A stretch of 64,000 bases of DNA from a virus (taxonomy: Duplodnaviria > Caudoviricetes): IMG/VR virus record IMGVR_UViG_3300034069_002177, positions 96,001 through 160,000 of that record; one strand, written 5' to 3'. Of this stretch, positions 25,887 through 62,380 are shown piece after piece; within the stretch, counting starts at the first letter, position 1; every line of letters starts with the position of its first letter. A model generated the notes under the pieces. That model had not been told where the DNA came from. It did not search any database and saw nothing but the letters and a program-made list of their open reading frames with translations. A program made the position numbers and the translations under genes.

Positions 25887-25920
25887 AGATGTTGTAGTAA
25901 GAACCAGAAAGGACTACAAC

Positions 25921-26325
25921 ATGGCTGTCACTCTAGATTCAATGCCGAACGAGGTCAATGTCAAGGACGCACCTCCCGCTCCTAATCTCGTCAAGGTCGC
26001 AACTCTCCGAGCGGTCACCACTCGCCGTCGTCTGGATCGTTTCTGGCAGATGATTCGCGATGAGGCTCCCACCAGCTATCCCGTTGGCACCTACAGCATC
26101 CCTGGTGAAGAGGATCTGAAGCTCGTGGTGGTCGATGTCATGAAGCCCGCATCAAGCGCAGAGCTTACCGATGACGACACAGCAGTCTTCCCGAAATACC
26201 GTTTCGGTGCAAAGGTCGTCTCTGCCGATTCGATTGCTACCGATCTCGGTGAAATCGGAGTTGCCACTCCTTACGACTACGTAGCTCCCAAGCCCAAGAA
26301 CACTCCCGGTGACGGATTCGTTTGA
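25921..26325 (+). CDS. Hypothetical protein, paralogue of 9483-9905
   Basis: GAAAGGA RBS; RFWQMIRDE...PVGTY...FPKYRFGAKVVSADS. Confidence 0.8.
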   Translation: MAVTLDSMPNEVNVKDAPPAPNLVKVATLRAVTTRRRLDRFWQMIRDEAPTSYPVGTYSIPGEEDLKLVVVDVMKPASSAELTDDDTAVFPKYRFGAKVVSADSIATDLGEIGVATPYDYVAPKPKNTPGDGFV

Positions 26326-35918: not shown

Positions 35919-35957
35919 AAAAGAAGCCCCGGAGAGAAAATCTCCGGGGCTTCTTTT
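35919..35957. terminator. Bidirectional terminator
   Basis: AAAAGAAGCCCCGGAGA / TCTCCGGGGCTTCTTTT. Confidence 0.9.
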
Positions 35958-48944: not shown

Positions 48945-48984
48945 AACTAAATGGTCCCTGTAGAGATACAGGGACCATTTAGTT
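48945..48984 (+). terminator. Intrinsic terminator
   Basis: Perfect 18-bp stem AACTAAATGGTCCCTGTA / TACAGGGACCATTTAGTT with a GAGA loop and T tail. Confidence 0.88.
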
Positions 48985-49048
48985 TTTCCTTGTGTTACCT
49001 GAGCGAAGTGCTACGATGTGCATTCAACACAAGCTGCTGAGGAAATTG

Positions 49049-56689: not shown

Positions 56690-59600
56690 GTGATTCGTAA
56701 GGTCTTAAGCGGAATCAGGCGTCACCGTCTTTTCGTTTACATGTTCGTGGCAGTAGCCGTTTTGGGTGTTGCCGTATCCGCCAGTCTTACCAGCGATCCC
56801 AGTCAATCAATGGCTGTCAACACGCCTGCGACAGTAACTTCCGTGAACCATGTTGCCGCTGACTACTACCACAACTCGGTTGCTAATGCTGTTCAAAATG
56901 TGCAAGAAACTAGTGCATCCAGCTACAAGCAAGCGGCGGCATCTGATGGTCAATACAGCAGCGTACCGGCTCTTAAATCTCACCTACAGGGCGCAAACGC
57001 AACCAAATTGGACTCGCTCAATTACTTTGCGTTTTCTCGGTGGGCTACCGTCACGTTACTACCTGTTCCAGCCGTAGGTTTTGCCAATATCGGCTCACTA
57101 GTAGTCGCAGCATTTGTCTCTTTGGCTAATCTACTTTTCACTATCGGAGCTATCGTTCTCCTTGGTGTAGGTCTTTTGATGCTTCTGATTACCAGCATCA
57201 ATCTTCTTACGGCATTTTTGCCTACCATCGACTGGTTCTTTGCTCAACTGGGAGGTCAGTGGCTTACCAACCCTAGCGGCGGTGGCGGAACCGGAACCAT
57301 AGCCAGCAGCTTCCAGGGCGCTTCTCCATTTTTCATTGCCATATTCCTGATGGTCATTGCCGTCGCAATTCGGCTATCTCCATTAGCTAATAAGGACAGA
57401 TCTCTTTTAGGTGACATCGTTATCTCTGCTGTAGCAATTGCCGCACTCATGACGATTTCTACCGCATCTACAAAAGACTGGAACAACTCAAACAGCAATA
57501 AGGTAGACGCTATCAATGGGAATACAGGCTCCTCCATCCCACTAGGATCCAATGTCGCCGCCTCACTTTCTGTCGATGGCGGAGATCCGTCTAATTATCA
57601 AAAAGCGTCCTTCGGCTGGTTCCTGGCTAATGGAAGCGATATTGTCGATGGCGCAGTCAACTTCGCTGGTGGTCTTATTACTTCCATTACCTCCGGTTTG
57701 GGCGCTATCTCCAATAGCGGCACTACCACCGCGCCTGCTGGTTCAAGCTGCTACAACTACCTCAACACTGGTATGCATGGCATCGCTTCAGATGTGCTTG
57801 AAAACAAAAAGGGTATTGCGTTCATTGGAAAGACCAGCACTCAATCGATTCTCTCCTTTGATAGCCTCGTTTACACCGTACTTTATCGACCAGCCGCTGA
57901 GGCTTCTTACGGAGCGAATGCCTCCGGCGATGCTACATGGTGTCGTATGTGGGAATCTGCTCGTGGGTCGGACCCGGTAGATCAAGCTTATATCGCTCGA
58001 ACTGCAAATATGTACTCAGACGCATTGAGTAACAATACTGATGCCAAAGACGGCGGAGATGGCATTCTAAAGGTAGACGGCGGTTGGGCAGATTCTGACG
58101 GTGGAAACAATGCCGTGAATGGTCATGCCAAGCTCGCGGGATTCTTTGGAAACACCCTTTCTACGTCTAAGGGTACGACAGCGTTTAAGTTCTACTGGGC
58201 TGCATGTTCGTTTGAAGGCAATGGACGGGTAAAGGTTTCTTCCGCATTCACTAATGCCCTTGGTACAGCCAAGAAAGATGACGATTCACCAGATGGTAGC
58301 AAGGGCGACAAGCTGAGTGATGGTGACTGCCAAACTGTGCTTCAAACTGCGGATAGCAGCAGCGGCTACATTTTCGGTGCCAAAAACAAAGATAACGACT
58401 CCATGAAAAATCTGAGCCCCTTCGCTTGGACTCAGGACGACAAATTGTTCACATTGTTCTTTATTGGATTCTCTGTTCCGGCAGATACCAGCACAGAACT
58501 CGCAAATGCTGACATGAATGGCTCGGAAGCCATCAACTTCTTCAAGATGGTCTACGGTTCAAGCGCAGGAAACGTTTGGCCAGCCGCCATCGTTGCTGTT
58601 GTGGGTACCATTATGATGTCTATTGGTCTTCTTCCGATGCAGGTTGGTGCATTGATCTTGCAGATGATTTCTGTTCTTTCTCTTATCGCCTTCCCCATTG
58701 TTCTGTTGGTGATGATTGTTCCTATCAGAGCGGGAAGAAAAGCATTCTTTACGATTCTCAAGCTATTCATTTCATCCAAGCTCGTACAGCTAATCTTCGT
58801 AACCTTCATCGCTATTGCTATCGCGATCATCAACCTTTTGACGATTGCGTTCGGTACCGTTCTCAATGTATCTCTCATCGGAGGAAACGCATTTACGGGA
58901 GATGGCACGCCACTCGGAACCTTCATTAAGGCTATTTTGAACGCAGTCGCCATCGGAATCGCTTTCTACGGAACCAAGAAGCTGCTTAGAGATGTCTTTA
59001 AGGCTGATGTCACGACCATCAAGGGTGCTATGTCCGTTGGTCAGAACATGGCTAGTACCGCCGTCAACGGTGGAGGCTTGCGCGAGATGGGTCTTGGGCA
59101 ACTTAAGTCGCCAGTACGTGGTGGTGCCGCTGGTACGGGTGGTTTCGGAAATGCTAACCTTCCTGAAGGATTGGGCAAGAACACTGGTGCTGACAACGAG
59201 CCGCGTCAGCCTGAAATGCCCAAGCGTCAGGACGAAAAGCAGGCTCCTGAAGATCCCAAGCAGAAGCCCAATGAAACCGCAGAGGGTGCTGCTGGCTTGG
59301 CAGGTGGCATCGCTGGTGTTGCTGGTGGTGCATCAGGCGGAGCAGGAGGTAGTGCGCTTGGTGATGTCGCTGGTGGCGCAGTGGCTGGCGGGTTTGCAGG
59401 CGGCGCTCCTGGCGCTCTCGCGGGCGGTTCTATCGAGGTTCCTGCCGCCGCATCGAAGTCGATTCAAGGCACCGTTGGTGATGGCATGAAGAACGCTCCT
59501 ACCGAGGGTCCGAATTCCAGAAACCCTGAAGCTCCCGTACCTAACGATCAGATGCTCACGGAAGAACAGCGTAAGGAAGCTGCCGAGAAGACTGAGGGTA

Positions 59601-60583
59601 TCCGTAGCGTTTCTGGTATCAAATCCGAGGATGTGTCCAACGAGATTGGTAACCGCTCACGCAACACTGCTGCTCTCGAAAGTCAGTTGGATGATGGTGA
59701 ACTCAACGGTGACGAAGAGCAGGTCCGTGATGCAGTCAACAAGCTTGGTGGAAGTTCTCACCTTGAAGGTTCGGCTGAGGAAGCCAAGGATTCGCCTGCT
59801 ATTGAAGCAAGCCGTCGTGATTACTTCGATAACAACGTGGACAATGAAGAACGTCCCGTTGATCGTGGTGAGAAGGCTGGTGAAGGTAACGTTCATGCTG
59901 CAACTCTCGAACGTATTGCTCGGGCTACCGAAGAGCAGAACGAACGTGATGACAACACCGTTACGCCTGAGGGTTCCGTGCAGGTTGTTCCTGGTGAAGA
60001 GGATGGTCAGAATGCTCGCGACCAAGAAGTCCAAGGCAACAACATTCCCGGACTCGAAAGTACCGACGATGGTCGTGGCAACTCGCAACGCGGCGGTCAG
60101 CAGAACAATCAGCAGACCATTATTGCCGGGGCAGAGAGCGTACAGCCCACTGACACCAATGCAAACAACATTGGTCAGGTGGACAATAACGCCGCTCGTG
60201 CTGACAACTACAAGGCTGCAATTGGCTCCGAGTTCGAAGCTCCCGGAATGGCAGAAGATTCTTCTACCGCCAACTCTGGTAGCGCTGGACTTGGTAGTGA
60301 AGGTCTGAACCGCAGGCTGGACAGCCTTCCTGGTGAAATTAGCCGTTCCATGCAAAACGTCATGGAGCCCGCCTTCGACCGATTCGATGCACTTGGTCGA
60401 ACGGTACGCGAGTCGGCTGAGGTTCAAGAGGATGCGCTTCAGCGCAATACCGAGTCGAACGAACGTATCTCCGAGGCTCAGATTGCAAGCATGGAGAATC
60501 TTCAGCAGACAATTGCTAATTGGTTCCCTGACAGGGGTTCAGATAACAGCCCGAATAACAGCGCTGGTCCTACCTGGCGTTAG
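56690..60583 (+). CDS. Large polytopic VirB6/TcpH-like conjugation protein
   Basis: Two TM clusters around a large exported domain, then a Gly/Ala-rich and acidic disordered tail; 1297 aa. Confidence 0.65.
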   Translation: MIRKVLSGIRRHRLFVYMFVAVAVLGVAVSASLTSDPSQSMAVNTPATVTSVNHVAADYYHNSVANAVQNVQETSASSYKQAAASDGQYSSVPALKSHLQGANATKLDSLNYFAFSRWATVTLLPVPAVGFANIGSLVVAAFVSLANLLFTIGAIVLLGVGLLMLLITSINLLTAFLPTIDWFFAQLGGQWLTNPSGGGGTGTIASSFQGASPFFIAIFLMVIAVAIRLSPLANKDRSLLGDIVISAVAIAALMTISTASTKDWNNSNSNKVDAINGNTGSSIPLGSNVAASLSVDGGDPSNYQKASFGWFLANGSDIVDGAVNFAGGLITSITSGLGAISNSGTTTAPAGSSCYNYLNTGMHGIASDVLENKKGIAFIGKTSTQSILSFDSLVYTVLYRPAAEASYGANASGDATWCRMWESARGSDPVDQAYIARTANMYSDALSNNTDAKDGGDGILKVDGGWADSDGGNNAVNGHAKLAGFFGNTLSTSKGTTAFKFYWAACSFEGNGRVKVSSAFTNALGTAKKDDDSPDGSKGDKLSDGDCQTVLQTADSSSGYIFGAKNKDNDSMKNLSPFAWTQDDKLFTLFFIGFSVPADTSTELANADMNGSEAINFFKMVYGSSAGNVWPAAIVAVVGTIMMSIGLLPMQVGALILQMISVLSLIAFPIVLLVMIVPIRAGRKAFFTILKLFISSKLVQLIFVTFIAIAIAIINLLTIAFGTVLNVSLIGGNAFTGDGTPLGTFIKAILNAVAIGIAFYGTKKLLRDVFKADVTTIKGAMSVGQNMASTAVNGGGLREMGLGQLKSPVRGGAAGTGGFGNANLPEGLGKNTGADNEPRQPEMPKRQDEKQAPEDPKQKPNETAEGAAGLAGGIAGVAGGASGGAGGSALGDVAGGAVAGGFAGGAPGALAGGSIEVPAAASKSIQGTVGDGMKNAPTEGPNSRNPEAPVPNDQMLTEEQRKEAAEKTEGIRSVSGIKSEDVSNEIGNRSRNTAALESQLDDGELNGDEEQVRDAVNKLGGSSHLEGSAEEAKDSPAIEASRRDYFDNNVDNEERPVDRGEKAGEGNVHAATLERIARATEEQNERDDNTVTPEGSVQVVPGEEDGQNARDQEVQGNNIPGLESTDDGRGNSQRGGQQNNQQTIIAGAESVQPTDTNANNIGQVDNNAARADNYKAAIGSEFEAPGMAEDSSTANSGSAGLGSEGLNRRLDSLPGEISRSMQNVMEPAFDRFDALGRTVRESAEVQEDALQRNTESNERISEAQIASMENLQQTIANWFPDRGSDNSPNNSAGPTWR

Positions 60584-60591
60584 TAAGTCGG

Positions 60592-60645
60592 TTGCAAGTT
60601 CTCCTTCGTTGGTGTACCATCAGGTCGCAACGAAGGAGAACTTGC
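60592..60645 (+). promoter_or_regulatory. 18-bp hairpin hiding the dnaX RBS, with an embedded promoter
   Basis: 60594-60611 pairs perfectly with 60628-60645, which contains AAGGAG; TTGCAA (60592) - 17 nt - TACCAT (60615) spans the left arm and loop. Confidence 0.75.
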
Positions 60646-60646
60646 T

Positions 60647-62380
60647 TTGACCAAATTCGCACTTGACGAAGAATCGCTCGATATCGACGATCAGGATGTC
60701 AACGAAAACGATTACGATGACACCACTAACGCTGATGGCACCACCGCTGTCGATGAGTCTGATTACGATGATGGTGATGACGCCGCTACCCAGAACGTAA
60801 ATGAAGTAGTGGTAGAAATCAAGCCTAAGGTTGTAGAAGTCAAGAATCCTGTCGATACCGTAAAGGCAACCGAACCAGACTCCCCCTACGTCGTACTCTA
60901 CCGCCGATTCCGCCCGCACAAGTTCTCTGAAATCATTGGTCAGGACAGCACGGTAAAGGCACTTCGTTCGGCAGTAATCAATCACAAGGCGGCGAACGTC
61001 TACCTGTTCTCAGGTGAGCGGGGCACGGGAAAGACCACGACCGCCCGCGTTCTAGCTTCGGCATTGAACTGCCCCTTTGTACGCCCCGATGGCGAGCCTT
61101 GCGGGGTATGTGACCTCTGTGTCAATGTTCATGCTGGTAACGGCTCAGACGGCGTTACAGAGCTTGATGCGGCTAGCAATAGCTCGGTGGATGATGCCCG
61201 CCGCATCATCAATGAAATCCAGTTCGCTCATGGCTCCAAGAAGAACATCTACATCATTGATGAGGTACACCTTCTTTCCAAGCAGGCGAACGGAACGCTG
61301 CTGAAGACCCTCGAAGAGCCTCCTGCTAATGTCATCTTCATCCTGTGCACAACAAACCCCGAGCGTCTCGAACCGGCTGTTCGTTCCCGTGCTACCGCGT
61401 TCTCCTTCCACGAACTCGATGACACAACCATGCAGGGTCTCATCAAAGAGGTTGCTGCGGAAGCTGGCATCGAGGTAACGGACGAACAGATTGCGGGAGT
61501 TGTTCGTCGTGGACGAGGTTCGGCACGTGATGCCCTGAGTGCACTCGAAAGTCTTTCTCTGAACACCGATGTAGTCGTCGAGTACGACAACCATGCTTCG
61601 GCAATCACCAAGGCTGTCGGAGACAAGAGCGTATCTGACATCATCATCGCAGTAGCCAAGGCAATCGATGGCGGTCTTAGCGTCAGTGAGATCGCTACCT
61701 CTCTGCTTGCTTATTGGCGTTCGATGATTCTTGTTCTGAATGCGCCCGAGATTGTCAAGCTGACCGATGCAGAGTTCGATTCGGTTCTCGACGTTGCTGA
61801 GAAAATGGGTACTGACAAAACAATCCACATGCTTCGTAAGTTAGGTGAAGCTCATGGCTCTTTGCTACAAGGAGATCCGCGAGTCATGATCGAAACCACG
61901 CTGATTCAGTTTGTTCTTCCGCACAATGATGCCGCCGCACTGCGCGACTTGAACCAGAAACTTGATTCGGTTGCTGGCGATGTGAGCGAGTTGCGTAAAC
62001 GTCCCGCTAGTTCACCTTTCAATTCTGAGCCAGGTACGAAAAAAGACAATTGGCTTGATGATTCGGAACCTAAAAAGGACACCAAGAAGGCAGATTCGGT
62101 AGTAGAGAATCCAGCAACTAAACCAGAAGAAAAGACGGCGGTAGCTGCGAGTTCTATCGAAATCATTTCTGACCCAGATGACCTTATCGATGCAATCTTC
62201 GAGAACGTTCCTAAGAAGGTACAGCTTTCACTTTCTGAGTTGGAAGTCGATACGAAGAATACGACTAGGAAACTTCTTGTTCTGAAGAGTCACAAGGGAA
62301 TTACGGATGACGAATTTGAACTACTTGAAAAGGCAGTCGCCAAGGTTGATCCCCGCGAATTTGATTTGGATGAAGACTAG
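60647..62380 (+). CDS. dnaX: DNA polymerase III gamma/tau clamp-loader subunit with an acidic N-terminal extension
   Basis: LYRRFRP..F.EIIGQ, GERGTGKTT, PCG.C..C, ELDAASN, IIDEVH.LS, LLKTLEEPP and GSARDALS.LE. Confidence 0.93.
   Translation: MTKFALDEESLDIDDQDVNENDYDDTTNADGTTAVDESDYDDGDDAATQNVNEVVVEIKPKVVEVKNPVDTVKATEPDSPYVVLYRRFRPHKFSEIIGQDSTVKALRSAVINHKAANVYLFSGERGTGKTTTARVLASALNCPFVRPDGEPCGVCDLCVNVHAGNGSDGVTELDAASNSSVDDARRIINEIQFAHGSKKNIYIIDEVHLLSKQANGTLLKTLEEPPANVIFILCTTNPERLEPAVRSRATAFSFHELDDTTMQGLIKEVAAEAGIEVTDEQIAGVVRRGRGSARDALSALESLSLNTDVVVEYDNHASAITKAVGDKSVSDIIIAVAKAIDGGLSVSEIATSLLAYWRSMILVLNAPEIVKLTDAEFDSVLDVAEKMGTDKTIHMLRKLGEAHGSLLQGDPRVMIETTLIQFVLPHNDAAALRDLNQKLDSVAGDVSELRKRPASSPFNSEPGTKKDNWLDDSEPKKDTKKADSVVENPATKPEEKTAVAASSIEIISDPDDLIDAIFENVPKKVQLSLSELEVDTKNTTRKLLVLKSHKGITDDEFELLEKAVAKVDPREFDLDED

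Follow-up and report, generated by a model that had tools for sequence, protein, structure and literature searches.

A hairpin enclosing a predicted promoter and the ribosome-binding site of a dnaX-like gene in a giant mobile element: a candidate translational insulator of the T4 gene e and IS10 type

Transcripts that run into IS10 from outside carry a segment lying 5' of the native transcription start which pairs with the ribosome-binding site (RBS) of the transposase gene; native transcripts lack this segment. Through such fold-back inhibition IS10/Tn10, and IS50 as well, are reportedly protected from external promoters, as Davis, Simons and Kleckner are said to have described in 1985. A similar device is found among the T4 late genes: e (lysozyme), soc and 49, along with I-TevI/II/III, segB and mobE of Aeh1, have an RBS-sequestering hairpin with a late promoter inside it, and the gene e hairpin is absent from several T4-type phages (PMC3014915, section 29; PMC2988022, section 12). 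Here we describe a comparable arrangement in front of a dnaX-like gene in a 64,000-nucleotide (nt) stretch of virus record IMGVR_UViG_3300034069_002177. This whole stretch, called the window below, covers bases 96001-160000 of a 202,737-base-pair (bp) record that IMG/VR classes as a provirus and estimates to be 96% complete. An initial annotation of the locus had drawn the parallel with T4, and its account of that precedent agrees with the published one. The class of mechanism is already known from phage T4 and from insertion sequences, and no new class is opened by this locus.

The dnaX-like gene (60647..62380; positions are those of the window and its + strand unless marked otherwise) is separated by a gap of 63 nt from an open reading frame (ORF) for a 1297-residue membrane protein, which the ORF list and translation place at 56690..60583 (+) as the last gene of a co-directional cluster. 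The gap holds promoter elements and a hairpin that overlap each other. A -35 element, TTGCAA (60592..60597), is followed after 17 nt by a -10 element of the TAnnnT type, TACCAT (60615..60620), just where the initial annotation had put them; promoter geometry predicts a transcription start at G60627, the seventh nt after the -10 element, with C at -1. The hairpin is a perfect 18-bp stem that can be read directly from the sequence and was also returned by an exhaustive inverted-repeat scan. Its left (anti-RBS) arm, GCAAGTTCTCCTTCGTTG (60594..60611), begins 10 nt beyond the TAG stop of the 1297-residue ORF (60581-60583) and is made up of the final 4 nt of the -35 element and the first 14 nt of the promoter spacer, so it lies upstream of the predicted start. 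Its right arm, CAACGAAGGAGAACTTGC (60628..60645), begins one base after that start and makes up almost the whole 20-nt 5' untranslated region (UTR) of the predicted short transcript. This arm includes the Shine-Dalgarno (SD) sequence AAGGAG (60633-60638) and ends a single base, T60646, before the TTG start codon (60647-60649), both as first noticed. The 16-nt loop (60612..60627) runs from the final 3 bases of the spacer through the -10 element to the predicted start, which is 7 nt further on.

The predicted structure is unusually strong. Both the minimum-free-energy and the centroid structure add an outer 5-bp helix, in which GUCGG (60587..60591) pairs with UUGAC (60647-60651) and which brings the dnaX start codon into pairing as well. 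For the 106-nt region the folding energy is -45.4 kcal/mol (z = -6.1), a value that none of 200 dinucleotide shuffles reaches. For the 213 genes called in the record, of which 212 were ranked, we calculated how much energy it takes to open positions -16 to +3 when the RNA spans -90 to +30. On read-through RNA, dnaX needs 29.1 kcal/mol and ranks first of the 212 (median 7.8, 99th percentile 19.5). When only the segment 5' of the predicted start was shuffled, 0 of 300 sequences reached the observed occlusion, the maximum being 18.0 kcal/mol. In RNAs that begin at 60626-60630, 3.7-3.9 kcal/mol suffices to open this region, a computed difference between long and short RNA of about 25 kcal/mol, and no significant fold was found in the short dnaX RNA from the predicted start onward. 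The proposal that the hairpin locks the dnaX RBS is borne out by this model, in which both the SD sequence and the start codon are covered.

The embedded promoter is very probably real, as judged from its sequence features and their recurrence. TTGnnn, a 17-nt spacer, TAnnnT and a purine at the seventh nt downstream are all present, as in promoters of the sigma-70/sigma-A type. In the whole record, TTGnnn-17-TAnnnT occurs 18 times at 12-45 nt 5' of called starts, 10-fold above the 1.8 occurrences expected from the genome-wide rate, so that housekeeping-type promoters can apparently be predicted throughout the record from sequence alone. This class of motif agrees with the actinobacterial consensus, which has TANNNT at -10 and TTGAC at -35 (PMC6614810). 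A promoter of the PafBC/RecA-NDp type (TGTCRG-N10-TAnnnT) is absent at dnaX, where GGTG directly adjoins the -10 element. A Gram-positive SOS box (GAAC-N4-GTTC) was likewise discarded, by eye: the arms read GTTC-N4-TCG and CGA-N4-GAAC, in the wrong order.

We propose that the dnaX hairpin works as a translational insulator in the manner of T4 gene e and IS10, an explanation that we regard as reasonably probable, with both the start site and the effect on translation being predictions of the model. The 63-nt gap would hold a housekeeping-type (sigma-A-like) promoter firing at G60627, and in this lineage the DNA of its -35 element and spacer would have evolved into the exact complement of the 20-nt 5' UTR. 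RNA entering from the upstream operon, which is co-directional with dnaX, would contain both arms and form the 18-bp helix together with the outer 5-bp helix. With the SD sequence and the TTG hidden in this way, ribosomes would be unable to initiate dnaX on read-through RNA. A ribosome terminating at the upstream stop would reach only the outer helix and could not unlock the main stem, because the stop codon lies 10 nt before that stem, as judged from the known ribosome footprint; on the same footprint argument, translational coupling, in which the terminating ribosome opens the lock, was considered and judged unlikely. RNA from the internal promoter would begin one base before the right arm, lack the left arm, be unstructured and hence be translatable. 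The synthesis of DnaX would then be governed by the gene's own promoter, whether or not the upstream cluster is transcribed. Were the helix also to cause partial termination or be cleaved by ribonuclease III (RNase III), the insulation would be reinforced and not contradicted.

The likeness to T4 is close. In both cases a hairpin in the long read-through RNA (at dnaX a predicted one) covers the SD sequence along with the start codon, and the stretch of DNA that specifies its 5' strand contains a promoter whose transcripts lack that strand (in T4 these are translated; at dnaX their start and their translation are predicted). The structure occurs in some relatives and is missing in others. The dnaX promoter, however, is of the housekeeping form TTGnnn-17-TAnnnT, whereas T4 uses the gp55 late promoter TATAAATA; furthermore, the setting differs in its apparently actinobacterial host, in the gene concerned, which encodes a replisome subunit, and in the element itself, which is 203 kb long and has transfer-type genes, and the dnaX case has been read from sequence. 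T4 has a temporal early/late programme, and we know of none for this element. With IS10 and IS50 the locus shares the principle that a segment upstream of the native start pairs with the RBS only in entering transcripts. There, however, the 5' arm is the terminal sequence of the element and guards against fortuitous host promoters, whereas the dnaX lock stands at an internal gene junction; and, unlike IS10/IS50, the lock recurs at several junctions of one element with different stems.

We compared the dnaX junction in six lineages with the same gene order: the window, L002, L004, L007, L008 and L009 (L005 and L006, from two other samples, have the same gap sequence as L004). Their DnaX proteins are 50-66% identical, and all of them keep the TTG start of dnaX and have a syntenic large ORF 5' of it. 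The promoter is kept in all six as TTG[C/A]nn, exactly 17 nt and TAC[C/T]AT, while the spacer sequence diverges: 8 of 12 columns are invariant in the promoter boxes vs 3 of 17 in the spacer. The TTG of the -35 element is invariant and its fourth base is C in 5/6; at -10 the other five relatives read TACTAT, without exception 17 nt beyond TTGnnn, and the -10 element stands 26 nt from the start codon in 5/6. The seventh base after it is a purine in 6/6, usually preceded by C. Thus, of the earlier claim that transcription starts at about 60627 and yields an RNA without the left arm, the promoter is conserved throughout and the short RNA, which lacks the left arm, opens easily, while the start itself stays a prediction.

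The lock itself is far less widespread. The 18-bp form is present in two of the six lineages only, the window and L004 (where it extends to 21 bp). Between these two the arms are identical at 36 of 36 positions (18 of 18 for the left arm alone) vs 9 of 16 in the loop, mostly at -10 bases, 66% in dnaX and 55% in the tail of the upstream ORF; the path that separates their proteins is about 1 substitution per site long. As the right arm is largely kept even in relatives without a left arm, the left arm, which lies in an otherwise variable spacer, is the informative part. L002 has a different stem, built from the -35 region and the bases directly before the SD sequence and supplemented by an outer CUCU:GGAG helix; its long RNA requires 14.8 kcal/mol to open vs about 2 for the short one, and 1 of 300 shuffles reaches 14.8. 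In L008, the most divergent of the relatives, the promoter spacer contains a small GC hairpin (CCCCGAG..TTTGGGG; L008:3949-4000), and there is no RBS lock; this hairpin may be an alternative way of blocking read-through. Further sequences were sought with little return: the DnaX alignment, when run against metagenome and genome contigs, gave only distant cellular or other DnaX (at most 41% identity), a search for shorter DnaX fragments gave only pieces of cellular DnaX, and exact-pattern scans of viral contigs gave only the L002 contig or nothing.

The same layout was found at other junctions of the element. The TTGnnn-17-TAnnnT motif precedes 25 genes, to which three of the four highest opening energies in the element belong. 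Three of the 25 show a difference between long and short RNA of at least 14.7 kcal/mol: dnaX, an SbcD-like gene and a DsbA/thioredoxin-like gene. The SbcD-like gene (genome 180771, beyond the window end) follows an FtsK/SpoIIIE-like gene after a gap of 61 nt (L055:4710-4773; genome 180710-180773), where TTGTGA-17-TATTGT overlaps a stem of about 13 bp that extends into the RBS. The long RNA requires 16.7 kcal/mol to open and the short one 1.2; none of 300 shuffles attains 16.7. Four relatives with the same gene order (L057, L058, L059 and L060, near position 1501) have retained TTGnnn-17-TAnnnT; the -10 element is of the TGn extended form and stands 19-21 nt from the start. No lock was found at this junction in L057, L059 and L060; in L058 (1448-1515) the spacer forms an unrelated stem with the beginning of the coding sequence, start codon included (14.8 kcal/mol, reached by 0 of 300 shuffles). 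In front of the DsbA-like gene (genome 49836; junction L056:3730-3840, genome 49730-49840) there is first a canonical bidirectional terminator and then TTGCTG-17-TACGAT; the -35 region of this promoter pairs with the bases immediately before the SD sequence GGAGG. Here the long RNA opens for 19.9 kcal/mol vs 5.2 for the short one, and 2 of 300 shuffles reach 19.9; no relatives of this gene were found in viral contigs. The pairing solutions thus number two at dnaX, two at sbcD and one at the DsbA-like gene. These five independent stems have a common plan, with a 5' arm located before the predicted start and a 3' arm overlapping the initiation region in part. A broader reading, which we put forward tentatively and with more doubt than confidence, is that promoter-embedded anti-RBS arms are general but evolutionarily labile insulators that replace terminators at packed junctions, each lineage re-inventing the pairing and the first gene being translated only from its own promoter.

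Several observations weigh against an insulator at dnaX. L007, L008 and L009 keep the promoter and have no lock (9.4, 3.7 and 5.7 kcal/mol, within the shuffle range), so the lock is dispensable. Among the six gaps no family-wide covariation was detected for the 18-bp helix, with 59% of cells paired vs 58% in shuffles, and their consensus fold amounts to only -0.26 kcal/mol; the 18-bp helix is therefore not a family-wide RNA structure. Since the arms are identical in both lineages that have the lock, no compensatory change backs the helix, and since the DnaX tree is poorly resolved within the family, shared ancestry and independent gain are not separable. The promoter matches the E. coli consensus, which may not be that of the host, at 8 of 12 positions and has no TGn extended -10 element. 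Because of this 8/12 match it was not listed by a generic sigma-70 scan, which applies a stricter E. coli criterion of 9/12, and its support comes from conservation and enrichment and not from consensus strength. The UUU that follows the stem leaves partial termination possible. Finally, the start site, the read-through, the translational block and its purpose are themselves predicted or inferred.

The same UUU is part of the case for the best of the other explanations, which nevertheless strikes us as improbable: that the hairpin is mainly an intrinsic terminator or 3'-end stabiliser of the upstream operon, its overlap with the promoter and RBS resulting from lack of room in a 63-nt gap. The stem is very stable, ends in GC and stands 10 nt past the stop of a long operon. 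The gap contains no canonical terminator, nor is there any other terminator between the 1297-residue ORF and dnaX, and many long perfect hairpins do serve as terminators in this element. U-poor terminators have, moreover, been proposed for actinobacteria. The stem does not look like the terminators of the element itself, however. Its canonical terminators (e.g. at 48945-48984 and 35919-35957) are also long perfect stems in co-directional gaps, with A-tract/T-tract flanks, GC cores, loops of 4-10 nt and no RBS; at dnaX the 16-nt loop contains the -10 element, the stem is 50% GC and has no A/T-tract flanks, only UUU follows the stem, the tail TTTGACCA has 3 T in 8 nt, and the 3' arm is the 5' UTR. 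Intrinsic terminators as commonly defined (GC-rich stem, 3-8-nt loop, at least 5 T in 8 nt) therefore do not include the dnaX hairpin, and the terminator scan does not list it. The other junctions speak in the same direction: only the dnaX stem among the five is followed by U residues, those at sbcD (tail AGGCAAGA), in L002 and in L058 being without any U tract; the 3' arm in L058 enters the coding sequence; and the DsbA-like gene has a canonical terminator plus a separate promoter-embedded stem. What all five share is a 3' arm over the initiation region and not a following U tract.

Less probable still is that the helix is an RNase III processing site, cleavage at which would part the upstream mRNA from the dnaX mRNA and either activate or destroy the initiation region. 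A perfect duplex of 18 bp (21 bp in L004) with a 5-bp outer helix comes near two helical turns, and processing hairpins between phage genes are a known theme. The stems of 10-13 bp at sbcD, in L002 and at the DsbA-like gene would nevertheless be poor substrates, yet they have the same layout, and the conserved promoter needs no cleavage to be explained.

It is very unlikely that the inverted repeat acts as DNA, whether by serving a dimeric regulator as an operator around the -10 element or by forming a hairpin once transfer DNA is single-stranded. A perfect palindrome does flank the -10 element, and its arms are kept between the window and L004 while the loop varies; but 18-bp arms placed 16 bp apart are unlike known operators, DNA binding leaves unexplained why one arm is exactly the 5' UTR with its SD sequence, L002 and L058 occlude with unrelated sequences, such that pairing to the initiation region recurs and no motif does, and the arms are absent elsewhere in the element. 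Equally hard to credit is a functionless by-product of chance or of a recent local duplication-inversion, for although the lock is missing in three of six relatives and shows no covariation, no shuffle in 300 attains the occlusion that ranks dnaX first of 212 genes, the arms match those of L004 at every position vs a diverged loop and flanks, and independent analogues exist at other junctions. The arms occur once in the 203-kb record, so the hairpin is not a dispersed repeat or miniature inverted-repeat transposable element. A search against the covariance models of Rfam 15 assigned it to no family; the chance matches to microRNA hairpins (E 0.5-0.8) lay far under the gathering scores.

The gene behind the hairpin appears from its profile matches to be a true DnaX-family clamp-loader ATPase of 577 residues. 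It matches PF13177 (3.7e-32, 112 bits) and the PHROG clamp-loader family phrog_5846, and it passes the equivalog model of the N-terminal part, TIGR02397 dnaX_nterm, with 284.4 bits vs a curated cut-off of 250. The score against the full-length equivalog PRK05563 (312) is under its cut-off of 400, and a search for domain III (PF12169) gave no match. Both the window protein (60647-60890) and its relatives have an acidic N-terminal extension of about 80 residues. The nearest cellular DnaX proteins, about 45-53% identical over the AAA core, come from metagenome-assembled genomes of Acidimicrobiales, which hints at the host lineage.

Upstream, the sole verified member of the co-directional cluster is a 920-residue AAA_10 (VirB4/TraC-type) ATPase. 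The 1297-residue ORF and the remaining proteins of the cluster were without a match in Pfam, PHROG and NCBIfam searches. At 48945-48984, just 5' of a gene at 48992, an 18-bp perfect hairpin of the terminator type is followed by TTTTCC; this probably marks the start of the transcription unit, which would extend from that first gene to the cluster end at 60583. Downstream of dnaX lie a weak Replic_Relax match, a DnaC/IstB-like ATPase, DnaE and DnaB. Since no terminator-like fold was found 3' of dnaX, the dnaX promoter probably serves downstream genes too. The purpose suggested by the initial annotation, that the lock uncouples transfer from replication, is speculation and probably too simple, because the genes after dnaX mix transfer-like and replication functions, no terminator follows dnaX, and only the AAA_10 ATPase has been verified upstream.

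Two further initiation regions of the record lie in hairpins. In a 10-bp hairpin at 25889-25922 the loop contains the SD sequence AGAAAGG, and the start codon (ATG) of the gene at 25921 falls within the 3' arm. At genome 74730-74762, 21.2 kb 5' of the window, another 10-bp hairpin (CCTCCTTTGT/ACAAAGGAGG) covers the SD sequence AAGGAGG, 5 nt before an ATG; its opening energy is 15.7 kcal/mol, and no TTGnnn-17-TAnnnT motif was detected there.

If the dnaX hairpin acts as proposed, the known range of the T4 and IS10 read-through lock would come to include a giant mobile element of actinobacteria and a gene for a replisome component. What adds interest is that the design appears, from the sequences compared, repeatedly and in different sequences within this element family: it would have been re-invented with unrelated sequences at several junctions of related elements. 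For annotation this would be a warning that membership of an apparent operon does not guarantee translation of a gene from the polycistronic RNA, and for actinobacterial synthetic biology it would provide a compact, portable insulator of about 55 nt, made up of a promoter and an anti-RBS spacer. Should the broader reading of such arms as general insulators also be true, the dosage or timing of replisome and repair proteins would be set independently of the DNA-transfer-type operons that flank their genes.

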